Assembly: GCA_963817745.1 (NCBI GenBank)
Contig: CAWFPC010000008.1
Span: 67,009-131,008 of the forward strand
Direction of reading: 5' to 3'
DNA length: 64,000 nt
Source of the DNA: an uncultured Chloroflexia bacterium
GTDB taxonomy: Bacteria > Chloroflexota > Limnocylindria > Limnocylindrales > CSP1-4
Part shown: piece by piece, positions 3,464 through 34,911 of the stretch
Numbering within the stretch: the stretch's first letter is position 1
How the letters are laid out: every line of letters starts with the position of its first letter
The notes under the pieces: model-generated
Told to the model about the DNA's origin: nothing
Seen by the model: the letters and a program-made list of their open reading frames with translations, nothing else
Databases searched by the model: none
Translations under genes and position numbers: made by a program

Positions 3464-3839
3464 GGGGATGCGTGGTTTCGACAGGGCCTGGATACCGGGG
3501 AACGCGAGCCGAGGATGCTGCTCAGGCCTCGTTAATCAGGCAGCAAAACGAAGTACCTGGCAACCGCCAGTCGACTCTCGCCCTCGCTGCTTAGGCAGTA
3601 AGGTGAGCGTGGAAGCTACCTCCGCCTCGTGGGTAGTGGAAGCGTCACTCAGCGAGGCTGCGATCCGGACCAGCGTCACGTAATCCGGAGCCAAGCCCGA
3701 TCTAGGGACACGTGACTGGACCGTCCGGCAGAGTGCCGATGCCCGTCCGGGCGGTCGACGACAAACCATCGGACACGCTCGTAGTGGGCTCCGGCGAAGG
3801 GTTCTGGACGGGGAGTTCGACTCTCCCCCATCTCCACCA
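3464..3839 (+). ncRNA. ssrA: Transfer-messenger RNA (tmRNA, SsrA)
   Basis: 5' end GGGGATGCGTGGTTTCGACAGGG pairs with 3' end ...GGACGGGGAGTTCGACTCTCCCCCATCTCCACCA (tRNA-like acceptor/T-arm with CCA). Internal tag ORF ends ...ACT CTC GCC CTC GCT GCT TAG (…TLALAA*) at 3574-3594. Gene sits directly downstream of smpB. Confidence 0.9.
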
Positions 3840-5427: not shown

Positions 5428-5464
5428 CGGGCGCCGTGCCGCGGCTCCGCTCGCGACGGATCGG

Positions 5465-7325
5465 TCAGTCGGCGGCGCGTCCGACCAGGGTGACGCCCGT
5501 GATGCGCTGGTAATTGGAGTAGTACTGATCCTTGTGGATCACGTTGCCCTTGCGATCGCGGACCGTGCGCGTCACCCAGACCTGCTTGCCGTCGACCGGG
5601 TACTCGATGCGCTTCGACTGGCCCGGCCGCAGCGACGACGTGCGCTGGATCGTGTCGGTCGCGTGGCGGACGTTCTTCACGATCGGCCGGCTGAACGAGA
5701 CCTTCCGGCCGGTCGGCACGCTGTAGATCTCGAACCTGACGTAGCCCGCGCTGCCGTCCCGGATCTGGTAGCCGCGGATGAGGACCGGGTAGTTGGTGTC
5801 GTTGGTGAACGACATCGTCTGCTTGGACGCCTGAGCCGCTGATGAAGACCGTCGCGTCGAGGCCGAGCGGATAGCGGTCGATGTAGTAGTAGTGGTTGCG
5901 CCGGGCGCCCATCTCGTAGCCCGCCCGCAGCGCCGCGTTGAACAGCGTCGTGGAGCACGAGCAGATCCCGCCGGCGAGCGCGCCCTGCGGTTCGGTGCGC
6001 CCGTTGATGATCGCGCCGCCCTGGCGGTAGCCACGCGCGCGGGTGACCGGCCCGACCGCGTCCCAGAAGTCGAAGGTGGCGCGCGGCGCGACGACGTAGC
6101 CGTCGATCAGCCGGGCGGGGATCCAGATGTTCGCACCGAACCCGTTCTTCTCGGTGATCGGGAAGTACGTCGTCCAGCTCGAGATCTTGCGCATCTTCGG
6201 CCGGGCGGCCTTGGCCTCGGCCGTCGTCAGGACGGGGTTGGTGACCTTGAGCGAGGGCTCGACGGTGGCGGTCGCGGCGCCGGCCGCGCGCGACGCGAGC
6301 ATCGTCTCGATCTTGCTGACGGTCGCGTCCTGGTCGAGCTTGTAGCCGGCCTTGCTCGGCGTGACGCCGGTGATCTTGCCGCCGTTCGTCTTGAACGAGG
6401 CGTTGACCGCGGGCTTGTCGATCTTCTTGGCGAGCTTCTTGACCGTGGCCGCCAGCTCGGTCGTGTCGATGGACGGGACGAGCCCGCCGTCCGCGGTCGC
6501 GGTGAACTTCACCCAGGTCCGCAGCTTCGTCGCGCTGATGTAGGGCTTGTCGCCCTTCACGCCGTCGATGTCGAGGTACAGGCGCGCGGCGATGCGCTCG
6601 GCCTGTGACTGGGCGAGGTGCGCCTCGATCGTGGTGACGGCCGGCAGCACGGCACTCACCGGGACCGGGACCTCGATGCGCGCCGGGGCGTCGAGGTCGC
6701 CGATGGCGGCGAGCGTCGTGGAGATCGGTACGGTCGCGTCGGCCTCACGGCCGGCGGCACCTGGCACGAGCTGGAAGGCGCCTTCCTCGGGCCGCACGAC
6801 AGCCGCGTTCTTCGGCCGCTTGGCGAGCGATGCCGCGTAGTCGGAGATCTGTGCCGCGAGCGCGTCCGGGTCGTAGGTCACGCGGGGCTCGATGGTCGCG
6901 CCGCGAAGCGCGGTCCGCGCATCGGCGATCACGCGCTCGACCGGGTTGCCATCGCGACCGATGGCCATGGCATCGGCCACCATCGCATCGACGTCCACGC
7001 GTCGGCCGAACGACTCGAACGGGATCGAGTGCTCGCCCTCGGGCCCGATCAGCACGACCTCGCCCTCCGAGAGCGAGGCGTATTCGGCCCGAAGCCGATC
7101 GGCCGCCGTCGTCGGGTCGAGTCCGGACAGGTCGACCGCGCCGGCGCTGACGCCCGGCAGGACCCGTCCGAGGTACTGCTGGTCGTAGGCGTACATCGCG
7201 CCGACACCCACGGCCAGGGCCAGCATCAGCCCGATCAGGAACGCCACCGCGAACCGAAGCCGCGACGACGGGCGCCGCAGCGGTTCGACACCGATGGCGA
7301 TGGTCTCGGGCGTGGTCGTGGTCAT
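5465..7325 (-). CDS. VanW-family protein, membrane-anchored, with N-terminal repeat domains; frameshift near 5830
   Basis: YFPITEKNGFGANIWIPARLIDGYVVAP...GGICSCSTTLFNAALRAGYEMGARRNHYYYIDRYPLGLDATVF is the VanW core. The C-terminal part (SFTNDTNYPVLIRGYQIRDGSAGYVRFEIYS...) continues in another frame. Confidence 0.7.
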
Positions 7326-19089: not shown

Positions 19090-19870
19090 CCCTCGAGCGT
19101 CTCGCCGAGGATCGGCCCGCCGCGCCGCAGCGCCCGGCCGCGGTTCACCCACATCCGCAGCCGAAGCCACCAGAAGTCGCGCACCGCGCGCAGGATCACG
19201 GTCGGTTTCGCACCCGTCGGCGATCCGGCGGTCCGCGGGTAATGCGGGACTCCGACCTCGACCACCGAGGCGCCGGCCGCCCGCAGCTTGATGAGCAGCT
19301 CGGCGGAGAAGAACGCGCCGCCCGATTCGACGTGCAAGGCCCTCGAGCGCCTCGCGCCGGAAGAGCTTGCACGCGCAGTCGACGTCCGTGACGCGGAGGC
19401 CGAAGAAGATGCGGTTCGCCAGCCGGTAGGCGCGGGCGTAGATCGTCCGGATGAGCGGGTCGGCGCGCTTGATCCGGAAGCCGGCGACGACGTCGGGCCG
19501 GTCTGTCGGCGGCGAGACGCGCCGTCAGCCGGCCGAGGTCCGCGACCTTGAACTGGCGATCCCCATCCGTGAACGCGACGAGGTCGAAGCGTGCGGCCCC
19601 GAACCCCGAGCGCAGGGCCGCGCCGTACCCGAGGTTGGTCGGATGATGGACCGCTCGCACGATGCCCGGATGCCGTGCGGTCAGCTCGTCCGCGATGGCC
19701 TGGGTCCGGTCGCGCGACCCGTCGTTGACCGCGATGATCTCGAACGTGTCGGCGAGCGCCGGCAGCGCCGCGAGCGCCTCCTCCACCAGCCCTTCGAGGT
19801 TGGCCTCCTCGTTGTGCGCCGGAAAGAAATACGACAGGCGCGGGACCCGGGCAGTCGTCGGCTCGGTCAC
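19086..19870 (-). CDS. GT2-family polyprenol-phosphate mannose synthase-like glycosyltransferase (Ppm1/Dpm1-like); 2 frame changes
   Basis: N-terminal GT-A fold LSYFFPAHNEEANLEGLV...IIAVNDGSRDRT...DLVAFTDGDRQF. C-terminus (...GGAFFSAELLIKLRAAGASVVEVGVPHYPRTAGSPTGAK...) is in a second frame. Confidence 0.7.
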
Positions 19871-21471
19871 GCGCCCGCCTCACGCGGGCCGACGACGCGC
19901 GTCAGGCCGGAGGCGTCCTGGCCGTCGAGGAAATCGAGGACGTAGCGCTCATCGAGGAGGCGCAGCTCCGCCGGGTCGAGGCGGATCACGTACACGGGAC
20001 GCACGGGCAGGTTGGCGTCGATCACGTCGGTGAGCTCTCCAAGGTGTTCGTCGAGGCGGGTGCGATCGTCGACGATGGCCACGTCCGGCCGTCGACCCTC
20101 GACATGCTGTGCGTACCATAGCGGCGTCGAGTAACTCCACCACGACAGGACCATCGCGTCGGGCGCCATCTCGAGCAGGGCGTTGTCGACCCAGCGCGCC
20201 GCCGTGTCGTCCCGCGACCGGTCCACGCGGGCGTGGCGGGCCTCCAGCGCCAGGGCGGTCGGAGCGAGCAGGATCACCGCGAGGGCCACGGCGAGCAGCA
20301 CCTGCGCGGCGTCGGGGCCACCGCTGCGCACCCTCGCGGGCCACCCGCGCTTCCTCGTCGCTGGTGGGGTCGGCCCCGAGCGCCGCGCCGACCGCGTCGA
20401 TCGCGAGCGCGCCGAGGATCGCCAGCCAGGTCCAGCCGATGAAGACCGGCACGAGGTAGTAGCGCTCGATATCGGCGTTGGTGTAGGACGCCGCGAAGAA
20501 GCAGGTGATCAGGGCGGCCGAGCCGGTCAGCAGGGCGTAGCGGGGCCGGCGGAGGATCGCCGCCACGAGGCCGAGCGGGACGAGCGCGGCGAGCGGTCCG
20601 AACGCCACGACAGCGCGGTTCGCGAGGTCGGCGAGCTTGCCGCTGAGGTCGCCGAACGGATCCACGAGACTGCCGCGGAACTGCTCGGCGAGGACGATGT
20701 ACCAGAACCCGTCCCAGGTCTGCGGCGTGCCGTACACGAGCGGTGCTCGGAACGGTCCGGCGCGCAGGGGCAGCTCCAGGAAGACGAGCACCACGGTGAT
20801 CGCCAGGGCGCCGGCGCAGGTGGCCACGAATCGCGGGCGACGCACGATCCCGGGCTCCACGGCCACGACGTACAGCGCGACCGGGAGTGCGAGGAGGAGC
20901 GTCAACGAGTGATTGCCGACGGCCAGCCCGAACACGACCGCCGCAGCGACAGGAATCGTTCGGCGCGGCGCGTGCCGGCAGTGTCGGTCGTGTCGCCCAT
21001 GCCCGCCGGGCCGGTCCCGCCGGTCGCGCGAGCGTCCTCCCAGGCCACGAGCAGGCGCACCAGGACGACGACGAGCAGCAGGTGGAGCGCGTGTGCCTCC
21101 GCATGCGTGCCGATGGACCACACGACCTCGGTGAAGGCCAACCCGAGCCCCGCCACCACGCCGAGCACCGTGGACCGCGTCAGGGCCCGGACGAGATCGA
21201 CCGTGATCCCGGCGGCCGCCGCGACGCACAGCGCCGCCAGGAGGTTCATCCGGAGCGCCGGCTCGCCGAAGGGCGACAGGACGATCGATGCGAGCCACGC
21301 CAGCAGCACATACGTCGGATACCCGGTGGGATGGGCGGTCCCCATGAGCGGGCCGACCACCTGCAGCTCGCCGGTGTCCCAGAACCCAACGCCCGGCATC
21401 AGCGCGACGCGCACGCCGATGAAGGCGACGATCGCGACCGCGACCGCCGGGATCGATCGTCGCGGATTCAC
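19867..21471 (-). CDS. DUF2723 (TMEM260-like) polytopic membrane protein, putative GT-C mannosyltransferase; frameshifted
   Basis: WDTGELQVVGPLMGTAHPTGYPTYVLLAWL motif plus multiple TM helices, spread over three overlapping frames (ORFs 20902-21516, 19949-21298, 19867-20331). Confidence 0.6.
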
Positions 21472-21475
21472 GACC

Positions 21476-22925
21476 TCACCACCCGAGCAGCACGCCCCAC
21501 GCCACGCCCCATGCATTGACGGCCACGGAGATGATCACGAGGCCGATGCCGAGCGGCATGGCCCAGCGGCGGCCACCCGCGACCAGGGCCTCGAACCCGA
21601 TGGCCACGAGGAGCAGGGCGAACGGCACGGCGTCGTTGCTGAACCGATAGCCGAACTGGACCCAGCCCTGGCTGAAGTGCATCAGGTTGACGATGACCAC
21701 GGCCAGGACCGCGAGCACCGCGCCGCTGACGAGCCGGCTCTGGCCGTAGCGACGGAGCGCCGGGATCAGCAGCAGGAACGCGGGGCTCGTCAGGAGCACG
21801 CTCGTGCCGATGTCGCGTGGCACGGCGAGCGGACAGTCGATATCGAATAGGCCACGTGCGGCGCCAGGTTCGGTGCACACCGGGTCGTCGTGGACCCCCA
21901 GTGAGTCGGGCAACGCCGTCGGGAACACGTCGGGCAGGGCGAGGAACATGATCGCAGCGTTCTGGGGCAGGTAGCGCGGATCCTCGACGGACCACGACGG
22001 CTCGTAGCCGAGGGCCGTGTAGGCGCGTGACTCGAGCTGGTAGAGGTAGTCGTAGGCCGGATGCAACGGATGCCCGGCCGTCACGAGGTTGTAGCCGAGC
22101 AGCAGCGCGACCGGGATGACCGCCCCGAGCCCGGCGGACCAGCTCCGCCGCCACCACGTCCCACCCGCGCCCACGAGCATGAAGAATGGAGCGGCGAAGA
22201 CCACGGTCAGTCGTGCGGTGCACGCGAGTCCGAACAGCAGGCCGATCAGGAACTGGCGCCGATCGATCGCCAGGCGGGATCGCCACGGCGTGGGGGCGGC
22301 GAGCGCGTCGGCGTCGACAGGGTCATGCGGCGCGTCGGTGCCTGCATCGACCTCGTCGTACGGCGGCTCGTCATCGGCTGCCGCAGGGTCCGCACGGATC
22401 GCGAGACCGACGGCGAGCATCGTCAGGCCGACGGCAACGATGTGCGCCTGGTACCACGTCGTGGCGAGCTGGGCGGTGTACCAGAAGACCGTCCCGAAGG
22501 CGAAGAAGATCGTCGTCGCGAGCCGCACCGGCGCTCGGACCGGGAGCCGACCGAGCATCCACCAGCAGATCGCGACGTCCGCCGCGGCAAGGATCGTGAA
22601 CAGCGTCTGATCGTCGGTGGCGAGACCCCAGATCGCCACGAACGGGACGAGCAGCAGCGCCGGGAGGGGCGGGAAGGGGAGCAGGCCGCGCGACACGCCA
22701 TCGGGTCGATACGACAGGCAGGACGTCCTGGAAGAAGGCGTTGCCGAACGAACCCGCCGTCCCGGCGACCGGGTAGCGGATCGCCGCGTGGCCCTCGAGG
22801 AATGCCGCGGCCTGCCACACGAAATGGTCGTAGTAGCGGTCGGTCCGGGTCGCGAGGTAGATCGAGCCGGCCGCCACGGCCAACAGCACGCCGGCGAGGA
22901 TGACCAGCCGGCGCTCCGTCCGGGC
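21476..22925 (-). CDS. GT-C-fold membrane glycosyltransferase (PMT_2 / ArnT-like); frameshift near 22680
   Basis: About 12 TM helices. N-terminus MDARTERRLVILAGVLLAVAAGSIYLATRTDRYYDHFVWQAAAFLEGHAAIRYP lies in one frame and the body (...LLPFPPLPALLLVPFVAIWGL...) in another. Confidence 0.55.
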
Positions 22926-22997
22926 ATCGAGCCACCCGTCCGCCGCGGGGTCCGCCGGGCGACCCTGTGCTACGCTCCGATCCACCTTCCCACGCTC

Positions 22998-24488
22998 ATG
23001 CAGGAGCCGCTTATCCCGGTGACTGGCCCCGTACCCGGTGGGTCCGAGCGAGGCACGGGCGCGCCGTCGCGGTCGACCGGGACGCAGGGAGCCGTTGGCG
23101 CGATCCTGATCATCCTCGCGCTCGGGCTCGCCCTCCGCCTCATCATCGCATACCTGCTCCCAGGCTCCGGGTTCGAGGTCGACCTCCAGGCGTTCCGCTT
23201 CTGGGCGCACAACCTCGCCACGGAAGGCCTGCACGGCTTCTACGAGCGCGATTTCTTCCACGACTACACGCCCGGCTACCTGTACGTCCTGTGGCTGGTC
23301 GGCCTGGCCGCGCAGGCGATGGAGAGCGGGGTCGGCGATCTGATCAAGATCCCGCCGATCCTCGCCGACCTCGCGATCGGGTGGCTCGTCTGGTCGATGG
23401 TCCGCGAGCTGGGTGGGCGCGATCGCCTCGCCCTCGCTGCCGGCGCGGTCGCGGTCTTCAATCCGATCTCGTGGTTCGACAGCGTCGTGTGGGGGCAGGT
23501 CGATGCCTTCGGGGTCGTCTTCGTCCTGCTCGCGTTGCGAGAGCTCTGGCGTGACCGCCCGGAACGCGCGGCGATCTTCACGGTCATCGCCGCGATCATC
23601 AAACCGCAGCTCGGCATCCTGGTCCTGCTCGTCGCGGTCGTCACGATCCGGCGGGCTCTGTGGCCGACCGGCGGCGGTGGACGGCAGGTCAGCGCGCAGC
23701 CGTGGCGGATCGTGACGACCGGTCTCGCAGGCTTCCTCACGGCGGTCGTCGTGTGCCTGCCGTTCGGGCTGTCGGTCATCGAGTTCACCGCGGAGGCGCC
23801 CTTCGTGCGCTCCGGCCTCGTCGAGCAGATCGCCGTGGCGGGTGGCGGCTACCCGTACGTGACCGTGAACGCGTACAACCCCTGGGCGTTGATCCCCTCC
23901 GAGACCGGCGAGACGCTGGCCAACGCCGGCGCCTGGGTGTGCGATGCGGCCGGGATGCCGGCTGCCACCTGCGGCGCCGGCGTCGCGGTGTTCGGCGCCA
24001 TCCCGGCGGTCGTCCTGGGCGCCGTCCTGCTGGTCCTCGCGATGGGGCTGATCCTGTGGATCGCGGCACGCCACCCCGACCGGCTGACGCTGCTGGTCGC
24101 CCTCGCGCTGCTCGCCCTCGCCTTCTTCGTCGTCCCGACGCGCGTCCACGAGCGCTACGGCTTCCCGTTCTTCGCCATGGGGGCGATCCTCTTCGCCGTG
24201 TCCGGTCGCTGGCGGATCGCGTACGTCGTCCTGTCGATCGCGACGTTCGCGAACATGTACGTCGTCCTGACCACGCTCTACCCCGACAACCCATCGGTCG
24301 AGGATTGGCTCGGGATCGGCGGTCTCCTCCGCTCCGAGCTCGGCGTGACGACGGTCGCCCTGGTCCACGGTGCCGTCTTCATCTGGGGCGCTGGCGCAGC
24401 TCCGCGATCGGGGCCCGGCAACGGCTGGCCGACGAGCTCGTCGCTGCCAGCGGCCCGATCCGGCGCGATGGCCGGCGGGCCGCGCTGA
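22998..24488 (+). CDS. GT-C-fold membrane glycosyltransferase (DUF2029/GT87-like mannosyltransferase); C-terminus uncertain
   Basis: MQEPLIPVTG..., polytopic, with RLIIAYLLPGSGFEVDLQAFRFWAHNLATEGLHGFYERDFFHDYTPGYLYVLWLVGL. Transcribed divergently from the three minus-strand glycosyltransferases. Confidence 0.55.
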   Translation: MQEPLIPVTGPVPGGSERGTGAPSRSTGTQGAVGAILIILALGLALRLIIAYLLPGSGFEVDLQAFRFWAHNLATEGLHGFYERDFFHDYTPGYLYVLWLVGLAAQAMESGVGDLIKIPPILADLAIGWLVWSMVRELGGRDRLALAAGAVAVFNPISWFDSVVWGQVDAFGVVFVLLALRELWRDRPERAAIFTVIAAIIKPQLGILVLLVAVVTIRRALWPTGGGGRQVSAQPWRIVTTGLAGFLTAVVVCLPFGLSVIEFTAEAPFVRSGLVEQIAVAGGGYPYVTVNAYNPWALIPSETGETLANAGAWVCDAAGMPAATCGAGVAVFGAIPAVVLGAVLLVLAMGLILWIAARHPDRLTLLVALALLALAFFVVPTRVHERYGFPFFAMGAILFAVSGRWRIAYVVLSIATFANMYVVLTTLYPDNPSVEDWLGIGGLLRSELGVTTVALVHGAVFIWGAGAAPRSGPGNGWPTSSSLPAARSGAMAGGPR

Positions 24489-24744
24489 TCGACGCCGCGG
24501 GATCCGGGTCGCCGCCGGCCGAGGATCGGACGTGACCGGCATCGTCACCGCTGCCCGAGCCGTCCCCGCCGTCGCCCGCCGTGGTCGGCGATCGCGAGCG
24601 GGGCTGCCGGGGCTGGGTCGAGCATGCGCCGTGTCGGCTCCGCTGGCGCTGGTGCCCGCGCCCGCCGGATCTGCCGGATCCGCCGCGGCCGTGTCCGGCG
24701 CGTCGGCCGCGACGATCGCCGCCGCGCCGGCGCCGATCGTCCGG

Positions 24745-27700
24745 ATGCCCAGCTGGGCGCCGACCACGACCTTCGCCGACCTCGGATTCGTCGGCTGGTT
24801 CCGCGCTCGCTTCCGCGATCAACCGATCCGGCCCGACCGCAGCCGGCTGCTCGTCGGCGAGCGTGGCGGCCGCTTCGACCGCCTCGACGTGTGGATCCTC
24901 ATCGTCCTCCTGCTGGCCACGTTCGGCCTTCGCCTGTTCCGGCTGGCGGAGCCCTACCAGATGCACTTCGACGAGGTCTATCACGCACGGACCGCGACCG
25001 AGTTCCTGCAGTCGTGGCGCTACGGCATCGACAAGGAGATCTACGAATGGACGCATCCGCACCTGGCCAAGTACGCGATGGCGGGCGGGCTCGTCCTCTG
25101 GGGCGCGGACCATGTCGATGGCGAGAGCGAGCTCGGCGTGCCGGCACGCGCGGCCATCATCGAGCCACGCCGCGACGATCCCGAGGCGCCCGGCGACCGC
25201 GCCGGTGAGCGTCTCCATATCGCGACCGGCGACGAGATCCGGACCTTCGACCTGCGCACCCGCGAGCACGTCGGCACCATCGCGGCGGTCGGCTCGTCGG
25301 CGCTCGCCTACGACCAGGAGGCGCTCCAGCTCGTCGTCGGCTTCGATGACGGACGCATCGGCACCAGCGGCGTCGAGGGACTGTTCGCGGATGCGGCGTC
25401 GGGTGCCGTCCTCGACGACATCGCCGACCTTGCGGTCGTGGACCACCCGGTCCGGCACCTGCTGGTGGCCGACGGCGGGGCCACGATCATCGCCGCCTCG
25501 GACGACCAGCTGACGGCCGTCGACAGCGAGACCGGCGAGGTCCTGTTCACCGAAGGCGATGGCCGGGATCGCCGACCTGTCGGCGGGAGGCACCGGGGCG
25601 ACCATCGTGGCCGATCCGGCGGCCGTCGAGGATCCGGCGGCGGTCGCGGCACGCCTCGCCGAGATCACCGAAGGCGACGCCGCCGACCTCGAGGCGCGCC
25701 TGACGGAGGGCACCGGCGCGCAGGTCGTGCTCGGCATCCCGGGTGACAAGCTGACCCGCACCGAGCTCGACACCGCGCTGGAGGCCGGCGAGCTCGACGG
25801 GCGTCGACATCGTCGATCTCCCGCGGGTCGCCGTCGCGATGGCGGACGGCGTCACGTTCATCGATCCGACGACGGGCGGGGTCATGACCAGCATCGCGAT
25901 GGCCGGCGGCGCGCACGGGATGGCGATGATCCTGGACATCGGCGATCCGAAGCTGTACGTGACCGCCGGCGACACCGTCGAGCCGCGGTACGAGGTCGTC
26001 GCCGTCGGTGGCGACTCGGCCGTGGACGGACCCCGACACCTGCGGGCGAACACGTTGCCCGGTCTCGGCAGCCGCGTCGCGTACGACGACGCGAGCCAGC
26101 AGGTCCACATCCTGGGCCACGTGCCGGACGGCGGGGCCGACAGCCCGTGGACGGTGTATGTCATCGAGCCGCACGCGGAGGACGCGGTCTACGCGGATGC
26201 GGCCCTGCCGGTCGAGATGGAGCCGACGGCCTGGGCCATGGACGTGGAGGCGCGCTACGCCAGCGACGACCGCCAGCAGCTGCTCGTGTTCGGCGCGGAC
26301 GGCGCCAACGTGAGCATCGACGTCGGCTCGCACGCGTTCGCCTGGCGTCTGCCGGGCGTCATCGCGGGCGTGCTCATGGCCGCCTGCCTGTACCTCCTCG
26401 CCCGGATCCTGTTCCGGCGGCGGCTCGTCGCGGGGATCGTCGCCGCGCTCGTGCTGCTCGACGGGATGCTCTTCGTCCAGTCGCGGATCGGGATGAACGA
26501 CGTCTACGTCGGGCTGTTCATCATGGCCGCGTACACGGTCTTCGCCGCGGTCTGGACGGGCTGGTGGCGCGGCCGGTCCGCGTTCTGGGTGGCGATGCCG
26601 GTGATCGGCGTGCTGCTCGGTCTCGCGCTCGCATCGAAGTGGGTCGCGGCCTATGCCATCGGGGCGCTGGTGCTGTTGCTGCTCGCCCGCAGCGCCCTCG
26701 GTCGGGCGGTCGCGATCCTGGGGCTCATCGGCATCACGAGCGTCCTCGGCTACATGGCGATCAGCGTCCCGGAGGGGGAGGGGATCGGCAACCTGACGTT
26801 CCTGATCATCATGGTCGGGCTGACGCTGGTGGCGACGGTGGTCAACGTCCTCCATCCGGTCGCCTGGTCCGATGACGAGATGCGCTTCGCGCTGCTCGCA
26901 CCGGCGGCGCTCGGGTGTCCTCGTGTTCTTCGGGGCGCTCGGGACCGGTCAGCTCGATCGCGAGATCGTGCTCGGCCCGGTCACGGTGACCCCGCTGCTC
27001 GTCGGCCATCGCCCTGTCGGCGGGCTCGCTCGTCGTCTACGCGATCTTCTGGGCGAGCGGCCGGGTGGGGTTCGGGCCACTCGCGCCGCCGCCCGGCTCC
27101 GGACGACCCGATCCGCCTGCTGGAGCCGCCCGAGCCCTGCCCCGACGGCTGGCTGCGGCCGGGCTGGCTCGCCGGGCTGCCCGTGGTCTGGGCCGCCGCG
27201 TGCCTCCTGGTCGTCCCGATCGTGGTCTACGTCGTCTCGTACATCCCGTGGGCGCTGCATCGAGAACCACCAGCTCTGGGAGGGCTGGCCGGCCGGTCAC
27301 GACGGGCAGACGCTCCTGGCCCTGACGCAGCAGATGTACGGCTACCACAACGGGTTGTCCAGCGCGCACGCGGCGTCGTCGCCGTGGTGGGCGTGGCCGT
27401 TCGATCTGAAGCCCGTCTGGTTCTACCAGGACAGCTTCGCCGGGAACACGAGTGCCGCGATCTACGATGCCGGCAGCCTCGTGATCTGGTGGTTCGGGGT
27501 CGCGGCGATCGCCTTCGCCTCGATCATGGCGTACCGCCGCAAGAGCCTCGCCCTGGCGCTCATCACGGTCGGCTTCGCCGCCCAGTGGATCCCGTGGGCC
27601 CGGATCGATCGCGCCGCGTTCCAGTACCACTACTACACCGCCCTGCCGTTCCTGATCCTGGCCCTCGCCTACCTCGTCGCCGAGCTGTGGCACGGCGCGT

Positions 27701-28520
27701 CGCGCCGGACGTGGGCGATGGCCAGGATCGCGGCGGCCGTCGCGATCATCGCCCCGGCGGCGATGTGGCTGTTCTCACGGCCGCTGTGCGCGTTCGTGGA
27801 GGTCACATCGGTCAACCCGGGTTCGCAGGCGTGTCCGGCCGTGATCCCCGAGGCGGTCATCACCGTCCGCACGATCGGGCTGCTCGTCGTCGTGTTGATC
27901 GGGGCGATCGCGCTGATCCGGGCCGTGCTCGCGCTGCAGCGGCCCCCCGATCCCGATGCGCTCGACGCGGGCGGCGTGACCGCGGGTGGGCTGCGCTCGC
28001 TCGTCATCTCGGCGATCGGTGTGGCGATCGGGTTCGCCGCGGTCGCGCTGCTCCCGGACACCGCGGTCCTGACGTTGACCAGCATCCCGGTCGAGCCGAT
28101 CGCGCTCATCGTCGGCCTGCCGCTGGCGCTACCTCGCGCTGCAGGTGTTCGCCTCGCGCGACGCCCGCCGATTCGTCACGGGCTACATGGTGGCCGTGGT
28201 GGGCTGGTTCGTCGATCGTGTACCCGAACATCTCGGCGCTGCCGCTGCCGTCGGCCGTCGTGAACGCGTACCAGGGCCTGCTGCCGACCTACCTGTACGC
28301 GTTCCAGTTCCCGGTGAGCACGGCCAGCCGGGCGGTGCCCGACCCGCTGCTCAGCCCCACGCTGCTGATCCTCGCCGCGGGGATCACGGTGACCTGTCTC
28401 GTGCTCGCCTACTCCGCGTGGGTCTGGCGGCTGGCACTCGCGGAGTCGAAGGCACCGACCGGCTCCGAGGCGGGCGAGGCGGACACGCCCGACGGTCTCG
28501 CGCGCAGCGGCGGCGCCTGA
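24745..28520 (+). CDS. Giant (~1250 aa) PMT-family (GT39) protein O-mannosyltransferase with a ~430-aa beta-propeller-like insertion in loop 1 and a C-terminal 4TMC-like region; at least 4 frame changes
   Basis: TM1 and loop-1 motifs HFDEVYHARTATEF / THPHLAKY. Then repeated ~40-aa blade-like units (…LVVGFDDGRIGTSGV…LLVADGGATIIAASDDQLTAVDSETGEVLF…YVTAGDTVEPRYEVVAVGG…). Then the PMT core (LLDGMLFVQSRIGMNDVYVGLFIMAAY) and the 4TMC-type segment (SSPWWAWPFDLKPVWFYQD). Frames switch near 25560, 25840, 27240 and 28150. Confidence 0.6.
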
Positions 28521-28529
28521 GGGATCGTC

Positions 28530-29673
28530 GGCCGCGAAACCGCTCGGCAGCGTGCCGTTGGCCGCCAGGCGACGGATGACGAAGCCGTAGTACTCCTCGA
28601 CCTTGGCGGTGACGCGCGGCCAGCTGAACTCCTCCGCGCGCGCCTGGCCCGCGGCGCCCATCTGCTCGCGGAGCGCCGGGTCGCGCAGCAACCGATCGAT
28701 CGCGATCGCCAGCGGCCGCGGCTCGCGCGGCGGCACGAGCATGCCCTCGCGGTCACGACGCACGACGCCCTTGTAGCCGTGGATGTCCGACGCGACGATC
28801 GGGGTCCCGGCGGCCATCGCCTCGAGCAGCACGATCCCGAACGACTCGCCGCCGGTCGCCGGGGAGGCGTACACGTCGGCCGTCCGGAAGAGCTGGGCCT
28901 TCTCGGCGTCCGACACGCGTCCCAGGAACTCGACCTCCTGCAGCCCGCGGGTCGCGACGTAGCGCCGCGCCTCGCGCTCCTGCGGCCCGGAGCCCACGAC
29001 GAGGAGCCGCGACCCGGAGCCGGTCTTGCGCAGGATCCGGTGCGCCTTGAGCAGCGTCAGCAGGCCCTTGCGCGGCTCGTGCCGCCCGACGAACAGGACG
29101 TTGGGCGTGCCGTCCTGCCAGCGGGCGATCGGGACCGCGTTCGCGTAGCGCGCGATATCGACGCCGTTGGGGATGACCTTGTAGTCGCCGGGGAAGAACC
29201 GATCGATGAAATGCCGCGCCGCGGCGCTCACCGCGATGCGGCCGTGGAGCCGGCCCGGCGTACCCGCGCAGGGCCCGGCTGCCGAACTCGTACGACGGCG
29301 AGAAGCCCGCGAACGCGTGGAACGTGGCGATGTTGACGCTGGTCGATTCGCGCAGCAGGAACAGCGACAGGAACGGGATGAACGGCTCGTGGAAGTGCAG
29401 GACGTCGAACCGTTCGCGCTCCAGCATGTCGCCGATCTGGCCGAGGTAGCGCGGCGAGAACGTCAGCGTCCCGACGGACGCGTTGATCGGCACGGAGAAC
29501 CCGACGCCGAGCCGGATGATGTCGCCCTCGGACGAGCGCTGCGGTCCGTGGCTGGCGGTGATGATCCGGACGTCGTGGCCGCGCAGGCGCAGGTTCTCGT
29601 ACAGGTAGCGGACGTGCTGCGCGACCCCGCCGTTCTCGGGGTAGATGTACGGGCAGACGAGACCGATCTTCAT
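28530..29673 (-). CDS. GT4-family glycosyltransferase, PimA-like mannosyltransferase; frameshift near 29230, 3' end approximate
   Basis: N-terminal half MKIGLVCPYIYPENGGVAQHVRYLYENLRLRGHDVRIITASHG. C-terminal half has GRHEPRKGLLTLLKA...ASPATGGESFGIVLLEAMAAGTPIVASDIHGYKGVV, the GT4 EX7E region. As read, the ORF would run antisense into the PMT gene, so the true stop is probably near 28530. Confidence 0.7.
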
Positions 29674-30508
29674 GCGTCGTCCAGCCGGTCGGTGCGCCGC
29701 GGCCGGCCCCGCGGGCTCGTAGCGCGGCGGTCGCACGCGCCCACCCGGGTAGCCGTGGTCGCGCCCGGTGCCGTCCCGCCGCAGCCGGCCGCCGACCTCG
29801 TCGCGTGCATCCAGCGCGCGTTTGCGCAGCTGCCGCCCGAACACCCCGACCTGGCCGGCCGTGCCGTGGAACGAGCCACCGTGCGTCGTCGCGCCCGTCT
29901 CGATCGCCCGCCGAAGGTCGGCCGCCGTCCGGCCGTCGAAGGTCGTCCAGCCCGCTGCCGATCGCGTCGAGGGCGTGGGCGTCGCTGTTCCCGACCCGCG
30001 CCAGGCCATGCTGCTCGGCGAAGCGCACGACGCGCGCGTGCCATGGGCGCCCGAGCGCGGTCGGGTTGAACGCCTCGATCGCGTCGGGGTGGACGTCGGG
30101 ATCCGGGTCGTCGAGCAGGCGGCGGATGACCCAGCCCTGGGCGCACAACGGGAACGGGACGAGCGGATGCGCCGGGATCGCGAGCCCGCCGGCCGCATGC
30201 ACCGCGGCGATCGTCGAACGCAGCGAGCGGTACGGCCGGATCGGACGATCGAGGTAGAGCGCCAGCAGGTGCCCGCCCAGGGTCGTCACCTCCTCGCCGA
30301 CGACGACCTCCACGCCGAGCCCGCGATCGGCCGCGATCGCCTGCGCGGCGAGGGCCGCATCGATCCGTTCGTGGTCGGTGATGGCGATGACGTCGAGGTC
30401 GCCGCGGGCCGCGACGTGGTCCAGGATCGCGACGACGTCGGCGGTCCCGTCGGACGCGACGGTGTGGATGTGGAGATCGGCCCGGCCCGGGCGGTCGGGG
30501 TCGCTCAT
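29670..30508 (-). CDS. PHP-domain metal-dependent phosphoesterase (TrpH/YciV-like)
   Basis: MSDPDRPGRADLHIHTVASDGT...IAITDHE...GNSDAHALDAIGSG. After a late frame change the +2 frame ends ...RLDDA* with TGA overlapping the pimA-like ATG (ATGA). Confidence 0.7.
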
Positions 30509-31483
30509 GCGACGCGGGCCTCCGGCGCCGCTGCCGGCGCCTCCGCCTCGGCCGCCTCGAGATCGGGCCAGATCGGGAAGAAGACCGCCCACCACTGCTC
30601 GGGCGCGTCCTCGACGATGCGCTCGAACGCACGGGCGATCGCCTCGGTCGTCGCGGTGACCCGTTCGCGGCGCTTGCCGTCGAGCGGGATGGCGATGGGC
30701 TCCAGCCGACCGCGATAGCGACCCCGACCGGCTCGCCGCACGCCGACGACGTACGCCCTGCACGTCGGCCTCGACCGCGAGCATGGCGGGCCCAAGGGGG
30801 AGCGCGGCCGGGGCGCCGAACAGCGTGGTCAGCGTCCCGCCGCCGGTGAGGTCGCGATCGCCGACCAGGCCCACGCTGCTGCCCGCCCGCAGCGCCGCCA
30901 GCAGCTCGCGGCGCGCCGCGCGGAGACCCACGATGCGGACGCCCGCGGCCCCGCGGGTCCGCACGAACCAGTCCTGCAGCCCCTGGTCGTCGATCAATTC
31001 CATCGGCGCGACCGCGCCCCCGACGCGACTCGCGAGCAGCAGCGCGGGCAGCTCGATCGCCCCGAAATGGAGGCCGACGAAGATGACCGGGCCGCCGCTG
31101 AAGGCCGCGTCGACGACGTCCGGCGTCTCGACGAGCATGAGGCGGTCGATGTCGCCTGGTCCCAGCGCCGGGGTGCGGGCGACCTCGAGGTAGTACAGCG
31201 CCGCGTGGCGGAATGCCCGTTTGACGAGTCGCTCCAGGGCTCGTGGGTCCGTCGCCGCGGCGCGGGCCGCCGCCGACCCACGCTCTCGCGCGGCGAGGTC
31301 GACCGCGACCCGGCGCAGGTTCCGGCGCGCCTGTGCCGCGCGATCGGGTGCGAACCGGTACCAGGCGTCGCCGGCGAGCTCCGCCGCACGGATGAGCGGC
31401 GCCTCGGGCAGGTGGCAGACGAGCCACGACCCGCCGATCAGCAGGCGACCGCGCAGCCACGAGCCCACGCCGCGCCGGGTCAT
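30505..31483 (-). CDS. LPLAT-family acyltransferase, PatA/HtrB-like (copy 2)
   Basis: MTRRGVGSWLRGRLLIGGSWL...VIFVGLHFGAIELPALLLA (HX4D-type motif)...PIAIPLDGKRRERVTATTEAIARAFERIVEDAPEQWWAVFFPIW. Frameshift near 30795. Confidence 0.65.
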
Positions 31484-31486
31484 GGC

Positions 31487-32514
31487 GGGCCGGGGTCCGG
31501 CGTGCCGGCCTGCATCAGGAGGCGCGCGGCGCTCGAGATCGGCCGCCTCCTCGGCGGTCGCCGGCCAGATCGGCTTGAAGCTGTACCACTGCTCCGGCGC
31601 GGCCGCGATGCTCAGCGCCAGCGCGTCGGCCATCGCCTGGCTCGCGCGCTGGAGCTCGGCCGGATCGGCCGACGTGAGGTCGATCGGTCCGGCCCAGGTG
31701 ACGCTGAACGTGCCGTCGGCGAGCCGGCGCGTCGTGACCGGGAGGATCCGCGCGCCGGTCTTGGCCGCGAGCGTGGCCGGTCCGGCGGGCAGCGTGGTCC
31801 AGGCACCGAACAGGCGGACCGGGATGCCGTCCGCGCGATAGCCCCAGTCCACGAGCAGCGCGAGCATCTCGCCGCGGCGCAGGACGTCGTAGATGCGGCG
31901 CAGGTTGCGCCAGGCGATGACGCGGACGCCCCAGGATTCGCGCTCCGCGCGCAGGTGCGCGAACAGCTCGGGGAACGACGAGTCGTCGGCGATGACGCTG
32001 ATCGGCATGCCATGGCGGGCGATGGCGGCGGCCACGGCATCGTTGTTGCCGACGTGACCCACCGAGAAGATGAGCCCGCCGCCGGCAGGGTTCCCCGTCC
32101 ACAGGCGCCGGATGTCGTCGGCGTCGATATCGGGCACCAGGGCGGCCCGCGTGTCGGGCGGAGCGCCGGCAGTCGCATGAGCTCGACGAGGTAGCGGCCG
32201 TAGCCGTAGTAGGCGCGCAGGGCGACGGCGCGCACACGTCGATCGCCCTGGGGAAGGCCCAGCACGTGGCCGAAGTTGCGATCCGACCAGTGGCGCTTGG
32301 TCCCCCAGGCGAGATAGGACGCCTGCGACAGCCGGCCGATCACGGCCGCCGCGAAGTCGGCCGGCAGCGTCTGCAGGAGCCAGGCAGTCGCCTTGTAGGC
32401 GACGACGGCGACGCGCTCGACGATGCGCGGACGCTGGCCGCCGCGGCGATGGGGTGCCTCGAGGGGCCGTTCGGGCGCCCTCGGGGCCACGCGCGGTTCG
32501 TTGCCGACGGTCAC
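31487..32514 (-). CDS. LPLAT-family acyltransferase, PatA/HtrB-like (copy 1, tandem paralogue); frameshift near 32140, 3' end approximate
   Basis: N-terminus [10 protein letters not shown]...[13 protein letters not shown]...[16 protein letters not shown]-terminal half ...[31 protein letters not shown]...[41 protein letters not shown]...[12 protein letters not shown]. Confidence 0.6.
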
Positions 32515-33753
32515 GACGCCGCGGCGGTCTCGACCTTGGCGCGAGCGCCCGCGAGCCTGCGGAGCTTGCGCTTCTCCGGCTTCTCGGTGCCCACCAGCGT
32601 CTCGGAGTCATCGCCGCGGATGAACGCTTCCACCCGGTTGAACGCGATGTCGTCGTGGATCTGGTGCGGCGGGCTCTTCATGAAGTACGCCGAGGGCGCC
32701 ACGAGCGTGCCGCTCAGGCCGCGATCCAGCCCGAGCTTGAGGCAGCGGATGGCGTCCGTGATGACGCCCGCGCTGTTGGGGCTGTCCCAGACCTCGAGCT
32801 TGAGCTCCGCGTTGAGCGGCACGTCCCCGAAGGTCGTGCCCTCCATCCGGATGTAGCACCACTTGCGATCGAGCAGCCACGGCACGTGGTCGCTGGGGCC
32901 GACGTGGACGTCGTCGGGGTCGAGCTCGTAATCGAGCATCGAGGTGACCGCGTTGGTCTTGGAGATCTTCTTGGACTCGAGTCGCTCGCGTTCGAGCATG
33001 TTGAGGAAGTCGGTGTTGCCGCCGAAGTTGAGCTGGTACGTCCGGTCGAGGCGGACGCCGCGATCCATGAACAGGCGGGTCAGCACGCGGTGGCTGATCG
33101 TCGCGCCGACCTGGCTCTTGATGTCGTCGCCGATGACCGGCAGGCCGGCCGAGGCGAACCGCCGCTGCCAGTACGGCTCGCGACCGATGAACACCGGGAT
33201 CGCGTTGACGAAGCCCGACACCCGCGGCCAGCGCCTGCTCCGCGTACCACTTGGTCGCCTCCTCGCTGCCGACCGGCAGGTAGGAGACCATGACGTCGAC
33301 CTCGCGCTCCTTGAGGATGCCGACGATGTCGGCCGTCTCGCCCGGCGCCTTCTCGATGATCTGGCTGAGGTACTTGCCGAGACCGTCGTGGACCATGCCG
33401 CGCTCCACGGTCACCCCGGTCCGCTTGACCTTGTGGAAGGTGTACGTGTTGTTCGGCTTCGTGTAGATCGCCTCGGCGAGGTCCTTGCCGACCTTGTTCT
33501 TGTCGATGTCGAAGGCGGCGACGAAGTCGATGTCGCGGACGTGGTAGCCGCCGAGGTTGACGTGCATCAGCCCGGGGACGAAGTCGTCGTCCGCGGCATC
33601 CTCGTAGTAGTAGCGCCCCTGGACGAGGCTGCTCGCGCAGTTGCCGACGCCGACGATCGCGACGCGGATCTTGCCGTCGCCGCGTCGGGCGGAGCCCGCC
33701 CAGGTGTTCGACGGCGTCGCGCCGTTCTTGCCGTTGCTGCCGTTCTTGCTCAC
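32511..33753 (-). CDS. ino1: myo-Inositol-1-phosphate synthase
   Basis: [27 protein letters not shown]... is the hallmark Ino1 NAD-binding N-terminus. The C-terminal half (...[28 protein letters not shown]...) is in a second frame (shift near 33220). GTG start overlaps the pgsA stop (GTGA). Confidence 0.85.
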
Positions 33754-34472
33754 GTGTTCGGTTCTCCGCTGCTCGCCGGCGAGCCGGCATCTGGGGTCGT
33801 GGACTGTCGTTTGGCCTGGGCACGGACGTGGACGATCCGCTGGATGACGGTGATGGTGGCGCCGAGGGTGATGATCCCGAGGGCGATGAACAGGGCGAGC
33901 AGGCCGGGCGCGATGGCCCCGCCGCCGGCTCCCTCGCCGCCCGTGGTCGGCGTCGTGCCGAGCAGCCCCGCGAGGAGGAGCCCAAGGCTCAGGATGACCA
34001 GGCGGATCTCGCGCGGCATGATCCCGACGGCCGCCATGCCGGTGCCCTCGGTGAACCCGAGTCCCTCCGACTTGGCCCGCGCGTAGCTGACCATGACGGC
34101 CGACCCGAGGGCGGCGGCCGCCAGGAGCGGGCCGTCGGCCACGCCCACGGCCTGGAGCCCGGCGACGATGCCGATGTAGACGATGACCTCGCCGGCCCGA
34201 TCGAAGACCGAGTCCATGAACGCGCCGAGCTTGCTGACCTGGCCGGTCGCCCGGGCGAGCGTCCCGTCGAACATGTCGAAGACGCCGCCGACGAAGACGA
34301 CGATCCCGCCGATCAGCCATTGCTGCATCCCGAGCAGGATCGCGCCGACCACGGTGATGCCGAAGCCGATCAGGGTCAGCCCGTCCGGCGTCAGCCCGGC
34401 CCGGCCCATCGCGAGGGCGATCGGCTCGAAGATGGCCTTGACGCGTGAGCGGGACTCGTTGGAGATGGTCAC
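33750..34472 (-). CDS. pgsA: CDP-alcohol phosphatidyltransferase, phosphatidylinositol(-phosphate) synthase-like
   Basis: CDP-OH-P transferase motif [28 protein letters not shown] plus 5-6 TM helices. GTG start at 34472 with preceding sequence [17 protein letters not shown]. Confidence 0.8.
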
Positions 34473-34475
34473 GAG

Positions 34476-34778
34476 GCCGACCCGAGCTCGGCGAGGCCGA
34501 GGATGGCGCGCTCGCGCTCGGCGACCTCGCCGAACGCCTCGGGGCGGAGCGTGCAGATGGTCTCGCGTCCCGACGCGGCGGGTGGCGACCAGGCCGGCCA
34601 CGCGGAGCCGCTTGAGGTGATGGCTCACGAGCGGCTGCGACAGGCCGACGTGGCGGATGAGCTCGGCCACGCTGGCCTCACCCTCGGCCAGGCGGCGGAC
34701 GATGCGCAGGCGGTTCACGTCGGCGAGCGCCTTGTGGAAGGCGCGCAGGTCGCGGAGGTCGTCCGGCTGGAGGACCAT
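34476..34778 (-). CDS. ArsR/SmtB-family transcriptional regulator; 3' end unresolved (frameshift)
   Basis: [68 protein letters not shown] is the ArsR winged-HTH. Confidence 0.55.
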
Positions 34779-34845
34779 CGACGCGAGCGTCGAACGGATG
34801 CGGGCGGGCGTCGGCACGAGGGAGGGGACTCCTGGGGATGTCGTA

Positions 34846-34877
34846 TCAACGGCGGTTGATATCAACGAATGTTGATG
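34846..34877. promoter_or_regulatory. Two abutting perfect palindromes ATCAACggcgGTTGAT | ATCAACgaatGTTGAT, ~70-100 bp upstream of arsR; candidate ArsR/SmtB operator
   Basis: Seen directly in the sequence. ArsR-family repressors bind 12-2-12-type inverted repeats overlapping their own promoters (established knowledge). A role as the DyP transcription terminator cannot be excluded. Confidence 0.5.
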
Positions 34878-34911
34878 CTACGGCGCTCGAACCGCCGATG
34901 TCAAGGCCGGC

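Follow-up and report, generated by a model that had tools for sequence, protein, structure and literature searches.

A seven-gene Chloroflexota operon for inositol lipids and a PHP phosphoesterase as candidate phosphatidylinositol phosphate phosphatase

Analysis of a 64,000-nucleotide stretch of DNA from an uncultured soil member of the Limnocylindria (Chloroflexota; contig CAWFPC010000008.1), hereafter called the window, revealed a seven-gene unit that appears to be an operon for inositol lipid synthesis. The best explanation overall is that this operon makes phosphatidylinositol (PI) and an acylated, glycosylated derivative of the phosphatidylinositol mannoside (PIM) type, that an ArsR-family protein acts as its autorepressor, and that the frameshifts interrupting the genes are errors. 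We assign this reading a probability of about 0.6; that the locus is a functional inositol-lipid operon is highly probable. The architecture is that of a known pathway, here altered. Its main value lies in the possible presence of PIM-type lipids in Chloroflexota and in a gene for a PHP-family phosphoesterase, a candidate for the enzyme that converts phosphatidylinositol phosphate (PIP) to PI. Of the seven genes, this PHP gene is the most informative.

The operon spans positions 34904 to 28409 on the minus strand. Its seven co-directional genes follow the order ArsR regulator, PIP synthase (pgsA-like), ino1, two acyltransferases (AT1 and AT2), PHP phosphoesterase and family 4 glycosyltransferase (GT4) (Table 1). 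Because the window carries single-base indels, the operon open reading frames (ORFs) are intact only after indel correction. Genes were called by three-frame translation and by Pfam and NCBIfam searches of the rejoined pieces, and frames were followed by plots of GC content at third codon positions (GC3) and by tblastn. A homology search with the PHP protein led to two related contigs, L001 (347 kb, PHP 97% identical) and L002 (3.1 Mb, PHP 83% identical). In the orthologous operon of L002, all seven genes are intact and the stops overlap the following starts; they encode 97, 217, 413, 356, 344, 273 and 418 amino acids. A first-pass annotation of the DNA had proposed a translationally coupled, consolidated unit of ino1, PIP synthase, PatA-like, PHP and PimA-like genes. 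Both parts of that proposal held, with the domains recovered by Pfam and NCBIfam and with all six junctions formed by 4-base start/stop overlaps (GTGA, GTGA, GTGA, ATGA, ATGA and ATGA in gene order). The limits it had given, 28530-34880, captured the region but not its ends, as the GT4 stop lies at 28409-28411, about 120 bases further, and the promoter-like start at 34904-34875. No convincing internal terminator was found within the operon region. With co-directional genes, no intergenic gaps and one upstream promoter-like site, the region is a predicted single promoter-to-stop transcription unit.

The same gene set recurred widely. A forward scan with the PHP alignment as query, using one genome per GTDB species, gave 80 loci, which were labelled Limnocylindria, Dehalococcoidia, Anaerolineae, Ktedonobacteria (including the cultured Thermogemmatispora tikiterensis T81) and Dormibacteria. 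Genes were counted over the 50 loci that had at least 5 kb upstream and at least 3 kb downstream of PHP. A PIP synthase was present in all 50, ArsR in 49, GT4 and an acyltransferase in 48 each, and Ino1 in 46. The gene order varied by class while the gene set persisted: the order in Limnocylindria was ArsR-PIP synthase-Ino1-AT-AT-PHP-GT4, and in the other classes ArsR-Ino1-AT-AT-PHP-GT4-PIP synthase. Even PHP homologues of only 34% identity were still located within Ino1-AT(-AT)-PHP-GT4-PIP synthase operons. The set recurs in dozens of species-level genomes, and the arrangement is far beyond chance.

In the route that we propose, Ino1 would convert glucose-6-phosphate to inositol phosphate, and the PgsA1-type synthase would couple inositol phosphate with CDP-diacylglycerol to give PIP. 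The PHP phosphoesterase may then strip the inositol phosphate group from PIP, leaving PI, to which the PimA-like GT4 would add a hexose, probably mannose. Finally, acylation would fall to the two old PatA-like paralogues, one of them possibly acting on the sugar and the other on the inositol.

The PIP synthase contains the PF01066 domain, and its best NCBIfam matches were archaetidylinositol phosphate (AIP) and PIP synthases. The scores remained below the equivalog cut-offs (NF045883, 115 bits vs 170; archaeal AIP synthase, 130 vs 180), and the protein is a distant member that falls outside the curated clades. Its best solved relatives were RsPIPS of Renibacterium (5D92) and Mycobacterium tuberculosis (Mtb) PgsA1 (6H53). 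The signature motif D1xxD2G1xxAR...G2xxxD3xxxD4, which reads DMFDGTLAR... in the window, was fully preserved, with D66, D69, G70, A73, R74, G83, D87 and D91 invariant (alignments A4 and A5). R92, S129, R154, R157 and R194 were invariant as well. In the alignment to 6H53 they are the equivalents of R94, S132, R152, R155 and R195 of Mtb PgsA1, which bind the phosphate of inositol phosphate (PMC6506517). Because both the catalytic motif and the inositol-phosphate-binding residues are kept, the product should be PIP, and a phosphatase would therefore be needed. The characterised prokaryotic enzymes of the PIP-synthase type take inositol phosphate (PMC9246714, PMC9385802), so that free inositol would be unnecessary. 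Ino1 scored 122 bits against PF01658 and 534 bits against TIGR03450, the latter below the equivalog cut-off, and over two frames it was 80-94% identical to Ino1 of L002. Synthesis of the compatible solute di-myo-inositol-phosphate was considered and rejected, because a cytidylyltransferase domain is absent, the score against the IPCT/DIPPS model was only 48 bits, and the operon includes lipid acyltransferases.

The PHP protein matched PHP_C with 49.7 bits (cutoff 21.3). H12, H14, D44/H45, E72, H113, D175 and H177 were invariant and D19 and H79 nearly so; as PHP-family residues, these conserved His, Asp and Glu positions are likely metal ligands. The confident AlphaFold model (pLDDT 88.9) ended in a long C-terminal helix and a basic tail, residues 211-273 having a net charge of +6 while that of the whole protein is -1. 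Foldseek matched the model to PHP proteins of the PDB with a probability of 1.0. The structural neighbours were RNase AM, TM0559, BVU_3505, PsfC and Cv1693, and no lipid phosphatase was among them. With the TrpH/YciV-type proteins (RNase AM 7UG9/9ETK, Cv1693 2YB1 and TM0559 2ANU), the operon protein shares the PHP fold and the likely metal-ligand pattern HxH...D...H...E...H...H...DxH, at 18-25% identity. It differs from them in its added C-terminal helix and basic tail, and in its genomic context, which is lipid synthesis and not the metabolism of nucleotides or RNA. It also lacks the domain inserted in TrpH/RNase AM, the alignments to 9ETK and 7UG9 skipping chain residues ~90-170. Against the RNaseRnm model the protein scored 47 bits (cutoff 375), and against the nucleoside bisphosphate phosphatase model 31 bits (cutoff 400). 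Fusions of PHP to GT4 or LPLAT occurred among the 50%-identity cluster representatives and were used only as weak evidence of adjacency. As genuine 'Rosetta-stone' fusions they were rejected, since most look like read-through in noisy high-GC assemblies. Searches of the literature available to us returned nothing linking the PHP domain to PI synthesis or PIM to Chloroflexi.

The PHP protein becomes a PIP phosphatase candidate because the operon holds every other known early step and exactly one gene without a step, which encodes a phosphoesterase. Such an arrangement has a precedent. The BT_1522-BT_1526 cluster of Bacteroides thetaiotaomicron likewise combines a myo-inositol phosphate synthase with a PIP synthase and includes a dedicated PIP phosphatase (PMC9246714), which shows that bacteria can encode this phosphatase beside the synthase. 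The Bacteroides phosphatase, BT_1525, belongs to the PgpA family, whereas the sole hydrolase of the Chloroflexota operon is of the non-homologous PHP family; the Bacteroides cluster also feeds inositol sphingolipids and is without PimA-like, PatA-like and ArsR genes. We put the chance that the PHP protein converts PIP to PI at about even. The joint reading, in which PHP would be the Chloroflexota PIP phosphatase, the two acyltransferases would contribute to acylated PI-glycosides of PIM type, and a non-metal ArsR-type repressor and its operator would be conserved across several classes, is tentative and falls somewhat short of even odds.

Several observations weigh against this role of PHP and, more broadly, against the proposed pathway. 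The role of PHP was deduced from gene neighbourhood and from elimination of the other steps, and the closest solved PHP relatives either have nucleotide or RNA substrates (RNase AM, pAp phosphatase Cv1693) or are uncharacterised. In a reverse scan, with PIP synthase as the anchor on metagenome contigs, we recovered ArsR-Ino1-AT-AT-GT4-PIP synthase operons without PHP (L117, L121 and L131), as well as PHP-less Ino1-GT4-PIP synthase operons (L113, L136, L139, L159, L163 and L164). At L090, a Ktedonobacteria-like dUTPase-PIP synthase-NYN locus had neither ArsR nor PHP nearby. One distant PHP homologue adjoined a LytR_cpsA_psr gene on a short contig with no inositol genes. In addition, the NCBIfam equivalog cut-offs were missed by PIP synthase, the PatA-like proteins and Ino1 alike. 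The loci L117, L121 and L131 indicate that the link between ArsR and ino1 is broader than the PHP-containing clade, and the PHP-less operons make PHP a lineage-restricted operon member, not a universal partner of the synthase. No phosphatase gene was found inside the PHP-less operon of L121; a Cof-type HAD gene lies ~4 kb downstream. The PHP-less pattern fits non-orthologous solutions to one step, and it fits an accessory role equally.

In the latter case, PHP would be an accessory or passenger hydrolase, such as a nucleotide or pAp phosphatase, an RNase AM-like nuclease or an Rv2609c-like scaffold, and the PIP phosphatase would be encoded elsewhere. The related operons without PHP (L117, L121, L131 and the Ino1-GT4-PIP synthase loci) presumably still function, RNase AM and pAp phosphatase are the closest solved structures, and the mycobacterial operon carries an accessory hydrolase-domain protein that has been proposed to be a scaffold (bioRxiv 10.64898/2026.07.15.738315). 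Against this reading stands the distribution of the gene. PHP orthologues down to 34% identity lay inside inositol-lipid operons at nearly every locus with enough flank, and PHP stayed with PIP synthase where GT4 and the acyltransferases had been lost. Reduced forms of the operon comprised Ino1-PHP-GT4-PIP synthase without acyltransferases (L058) and ArsR-PHP-PIP synthase only (L074, L077, L091-L093 and L098). L074 and L077 both have the NYN-flanked context of the full Thermogemmatispora cluster (L071); given this shared position, L077 is a deletion derivative that kept PHP together with the synthase. The missing TrpH/RNase AM insertion and the score far below the RNaseRnm cutoff also speak against this reading. 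We consider an accessory role unlikely.

PHP might instead belong to the pathway but act before the transferase, as an inositol-monophosphatase analogue giving free inositol, or its substrate might be a different intermediate, for example glycosylated PIP. The minimal ArsR-PHP-PIP synthase cluster suits a phosphatase for a soluble substrate equally well, and the PHP relatives of known substrate cleave small soluble phosphoesters. The synthase, on the other hand, retains the Arg and Ser residues with which Mtb PgsA1 binds the phosphate of inositol phosphate, its best family matches are PIP and AIP synthases, and the long C-terminal helix and basic tail of PHP are compatible with membrane association. 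A role of this kind seems quite unlikely.

The two acyltransferases were expected from the first-pass annotation to be a tandem duplication. The pair itself was confirmed, while a recent event was not. AT1 and AT2 are only ~25% identical, and each is nearer to the Thermogemmatispora protein in the corresponding position (33% and 28%, respectively) than to the other copy (22% and 25%). The pair was present in all Chloroflexota classes sampled, and AT1 and AT2 are separate old paralogues. An apparent fusion of AT1 and AT2 in the raw frame results from two compensating indels near 31522-31534. The two ORFs stayed separate after indel correction, the AT1 stop overlapping the AT2 start (ATGA), and L002 likewise has two distinct genes, encoding 356 and 344 amino acids. 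Both belong to PF03279 (AT1, 111 bits; AT2, 99 bits). Against PRK07920 they scored 145 and 112 bits (cutoff 209), against PatA 5F2T 93 and 51 bits, and PatA was their only match among solved structures. The catalytic His and its acidic partner, corresponding to H126 and E200 of PatA, were conserved in all 26 aligned orthologues. AT1 has HVGNND (H-x4-D) and an Asp at the E200 position; AT2 has HFGAIE (H-x4-E) and an Asp in a DRDLT motif that resembles ERDLT of PatA. Scores from hidden Markov models and phmmer placed AT1 closer to PatA, and the ERDLT-like motif favoured AT2. In a neighbour-joining tree with LpxL as outgroup, the placement of PatA relative to AT1 and AT2 had bootstrap values of at most 43%. 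A distant version of the operon (L088, 8072-8983) carries one acyltransferase and not a pair, implying that the second copy is dispensable in some lineages.

The GT4 protein has the two-domain GT-B arrangement, with Glyco_transf_4 and Glycos_transf_1 domains by Pfam. The L002 orthologue matched PimA (2GEJ/4N9W) over its full length (residues 1-363) with 208 bits and 1e-60, compared with 75 bits and 6e-20 for PimB' and 58 bits and 5e-15 for MshA. Synthesis of a mycothiol-type GlcNAc-Ins was rejected on this basis, as the fit to PimA (1e-60) exceeded that to MshA (5e-15).

The regulator at the head of the operon was confirmed as an ArsR-family protein, as first annotated, by matches to HTH_5 (PF01022, 60 bits, cutoff 22) and NF033788 (84.5 bits, cutoff 55). 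The TTGACA-18-TAGCAT site was the sole promoter-like match on both strands between 28200 and 35100, agreeing with the consensus at 10 of 12 positions (0.2 expected by chance). The two ATCAAC-N4-GTTGAT palindromes that had been pointed out near it are real; they are the only matches to this pattern in the 64-kb window, and the pair overlaps the -10 box and the likely transcription start. The same palindrome pair, always with 16-bp phasing, was located 80-130 bp upstream of ArsR in ~35 Limnocylindria loci. Outside Limnocylindria, several Chloroflexota loci had a related AT-rich palindrome (for example ATAAAC-N4-GTTTAT, ATAAAG-N4-CTTTAT or ATAAGC-N4-GCTTAT) directly behind a TTGACA...TAnnAT promoter, which supports an old autoregulated unit. 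The ArsR-family protein would be a dedicated autorepressor of the whole unit, and it probably binds the two palindromes overlapping the -10 box as a putative operator.

The first-pass annotation had also taken the regulator for a metal- or redox-sensing one. This found no support in the alignment of 64 orthologues, in which no alpha3 CxC, alpha5 D/HxH...H..E or Cys-pair site was present. A single semi-conserved Cys75 occurred in 50 of the 64 and was missing from L002. The effector is probably something other than metal. In its winged-helix HTH_5 fold, its small size (~100-115 aa) and the putative palindromic operator over its own promoter, the regulator resembles the ArsR/SmtB repressors SmtB, CmtR, BigR and SdpR. 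It differs from them in having no alpha3 CxC, alpha5 or BigR-type Cys-pair site, and in heading lipid-synthesis genes instead of metal efflux or sulfur genes. A gathering search with Rfam detected no leader RNA elements.

The condition of the sequence required separate attention. The window has a GC content of ~72%, and its raw ORF lists are crowded with spurious long frames. Single-base indels break six of the seven operon genes, only PIP synthase being unbroken. Frame changes were found at ~34572, 33213, 32152-32161, 31522-31534, 30760, 29953, 29258 and 28527. By tblastn of the clean L002 proteins against the window, these correspond to one change each in ArsR, Ino1, AT2 and PHP, two each in AT1 and GT4, and none in PIP synthase. 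The GC3 plot showed uninterrupted minus-strand coding from ~34870 to ~28500, with frame switches more frequent than gene boundaries permit and a coding signal of 0.9-0.98 on either side of each shift. No premature stops remained in the corrected frames. Along its full length of 20.9 kb, the segment 19662-40512 was 95.7% identical to L001, a conspecific contig, in an alignment that contained 80 gap openings, nearly all of a single base and spread across all genes of the alignment. Relative to L001, the window has extra single bases at 34572, 33213, 30760, 29953, 29258 and 28527, and L001 has single-base indels of its own in the same genes at other positions. Many of the related contigs are long-read 'MFD' metagenome-assembled genomes (MAGs). 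Given the steady GC3 signal, the different positions of the L001 indels, the long-read MFD relatives and the intact operon of L002, the frameshifts look like assembly or sequencing errors, not gene decay.

A decaying array of pseudogenes, with genuine frameshifts in a host that is losing the pathway, could account for at least eight frame-breaking indels within 6.4 kb. It is very improbable in view of the gap openings over all genes against L001 and the differing indels there, the GC3 signal flanking every shift in frames that have no premature stops once corrected, the origin of related contigs in long-read 'MFD' assemblies, and the intact clean relative L002. On the evidence of GC3 plots and of tblastn with clean orthologues, long raw ORFs in this 72% GC DNA, among them 29228-32611 (1127 aa) and 33750-34865 (an apparent ArsR-PgsA fusion), were rejected as frame-error artefacts. 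ORF-based readings of this window call for indel-tolerant methods.

The first-pass version taken whole, an actinobacterial PIM operon with a metal- or redox-sensing ArsR and a recent patA duplication, is scarcely credible: although its gene families are those of the mycobacterial pgsA1-patA-pimA operon, the named homologues and the 80 loci belong to Chloroflexota/Limnocylindria, ArsR has no metal-site residues, and the acyltransferases are ~25% identical and paired across classes. The organism is not actinobacterial, since the closest proteins and loci are those of Candidatus Limnocylindria/Limnocylindrales and other Chloroflexota and the actinobacterial equivalog cut-offs were missed.

Table 1. 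Positions of the operon genes and putative control elements in the window.
Feature	Positions	Strand	Remarks
Sigma-70-like promoter	34904-34875	-	TTGACA 34904-34899, 18-nt spacer, TAGCAT 34880-34875
Putative operator	34845-34876	.	two abutting perfect 16-bp palindromes ATCAAC-N4-GTTGAT, 34861-34876 and 34845-34860
ArsR/SmtB-family regulator	34817 (or 34778)-34469	-	start GTG 34817 after AGGAG, or ATG 34778; stop TGA 34471-34469; extra base ~34572
PIP synthase	34472-33750	-	unbroken frame; PF01066
Ino1	33753-32511	-	extra base ~33213 splits gene into two ORFs; PF01658, TIGR03450
AT1, PatA-like LPLAT/Lip_A_acyltrans	32514-31480	-	frame errors ~32152-32161 and ~31522-31534; TGA overlaps AT2 ATG
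AT2, second PatA-like LPLAT	31483-30505	-	extra base ~30760; PF03279
PHP phosphoesterase	30508-29670	-	extra base ~29953; indel in C-terminal tail near 29694-29702; PHP_C
PimA-like GT4	29673-28409	-	extra bases ~29258 and ~28527; stop TAG 28411-28409

On the plus strand, a giant glycosyltransferase gene of PMT/GT-C type (23019-28520; ~1800 aa in L002) converges on the operon. Its 3' end overlaps that of GT4 by ~110 bases, as it does in L002. Beyond it, on the minus strand, are genes for a conserved 494-aa protein with no Pfam match (21479-22985) and for a 504-aa PMT_2/TMEM260-like GT-C protein (19870-21459), which is followed by a GT2 in L002. Of the 64 loci with enough flank, 38 had a PMT-like gene no more than 6 kb downstream of GT4. 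The PMT/GT-C block may serve to build the PI-glycolipid up into a lipoglycan, or it may mannosylate proteins. Directly upstream of the operon is a large DyP-type peroxidase gene (34912-~37800, minus strand), the stop of which lies 8 bases before the -35 box and which is frameshifted near 35250. The L001 counterpart encodes 983 aa with DUF8225, DyP_N and Dyp_perox_C domains. The peroxidase is missing beside the operon in L002 and so is not part of the conserved unit. Nearly every gene examined between ~19.9 and 37 kb was frameshifted, including the PMT-like and DyP genes. Elsewhere in the window, Rfam detected a full-length tmRNA at 3464-3839 (plus strand, 117.6 bits), whereas ARAGORN reported neither tmRNA nor tRNA anywhere in it; indel errors or an unusual tmRNA may explain the mismatch.

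Some of the related loci had further features. A large NYN-domain protein (650-890 aa) was encoded directly downstream of PIP synthase at L004 (13832-15799), L071 (13468-16017), L077 (12091-14775) and L090 (8948-11224), two of them labelled Ktedonobacteria and two being unlabelled metagenome contigs, and it was present with or without the remaining operon. In a distant operon version (L089), a second, divergent PHP-domain gene (5033-5797, minus strand) stood head to head with Ino1, and an epimerase and a GT2 followed PIP synthase. At L121, genes for the Cof-type HAD phosphatase and for a PIG-L protein (GlcNAc-PI deacetylase family) lay 4-5 kb downstream. Seven loci (L006, L013, L018, L054, L055, L063 and L069) carried the Chloroflexota-type operon under public labels of other taxa, namely Patescibacteria, Sulfomarinibacteraceae, Verrucomicrobiia, Steroidobacteraceae, Zixiibacteriota and Actinomycetes; these are probably due to binning contamination or mislabelled MAGs.

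Among known systems, the mycobacterial pgsA1-patA-pimA-Rv2609c operon (Rv2612c-Rv2609c) is similar in that one co-directional unit unites a PgsA1-type PIP synthase with a PatA-type LPLAT and a PimA-type GT4. The logic of the route is also the same, from inositol phosphate through PIP, PI and PIM to acyl-PIM. In mycobacteria, however, ino1 (Rv0046c) is located elsewhere, whereas the Chloroflexota unit includes both ino1 and a regulator. The mycobacterial operon has one acyltransferase where the Chloroflexota unit has two paralogues, and a Nudix/LemA protein where the latter has the PHP phosphoesterase. The Chloroflexota unit is also without the second mannosyltransferase PimB', and its scores are under all actinobacterial equivalog cut-offs.

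The conversion of PIP to PI is the step for which the operon may be most useful. The sole bacterial PIP phosphatase assigned so far is the PgpA-type BT_1525 of Bacteroides, reported in 2022 (PMC9246714). For archaea, a 2022 review described the enzyme as unidentified (PMC9385802), and the mycobacterial one was still called 'long-sought' in a preprint of July 2026 (bioRxiv 10.64898/2026.07.15.738315). The current mycobacterial candidate, EphE (Rv3670), was proposed for the same step, likewise from indirect evidence (bioRxiv 10.64898/2026.07.15.738315). It is an alpha/beta hydrolase that is not operon-linked, and no homology to PHP is implied. If the PHP and EphE proposals are both right, PIP dephosphorylation would have been solved independently at least three times. 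The PHP operon thus gives a concrete candidate for this unfilled step of prokaryotic inositol-lipid synthesis, and the cluster is carried by a cultured organism, T. tikiterensis T81.

PIM-type acylated PI-glycosides are regarded as characteristic of actinobacteria. In cultured Ktedonobacteria, PI is a major lipid and occurs together with glycolipids and phospholipids of unidentified structure (PMC12453558). For lipid synthesis, the locus provides a conserved pairing of an ArsR-type regulator with a putative operator, and the two acyltransferases give a starting point for identifying the second (inositol) acylation of PIMs. The operon further suggests that glycolipids of a PIM-like kind may occur widely among Chloroflexota, a dominant phylum of soil and freshwater with a poorly known envelope chemistry.

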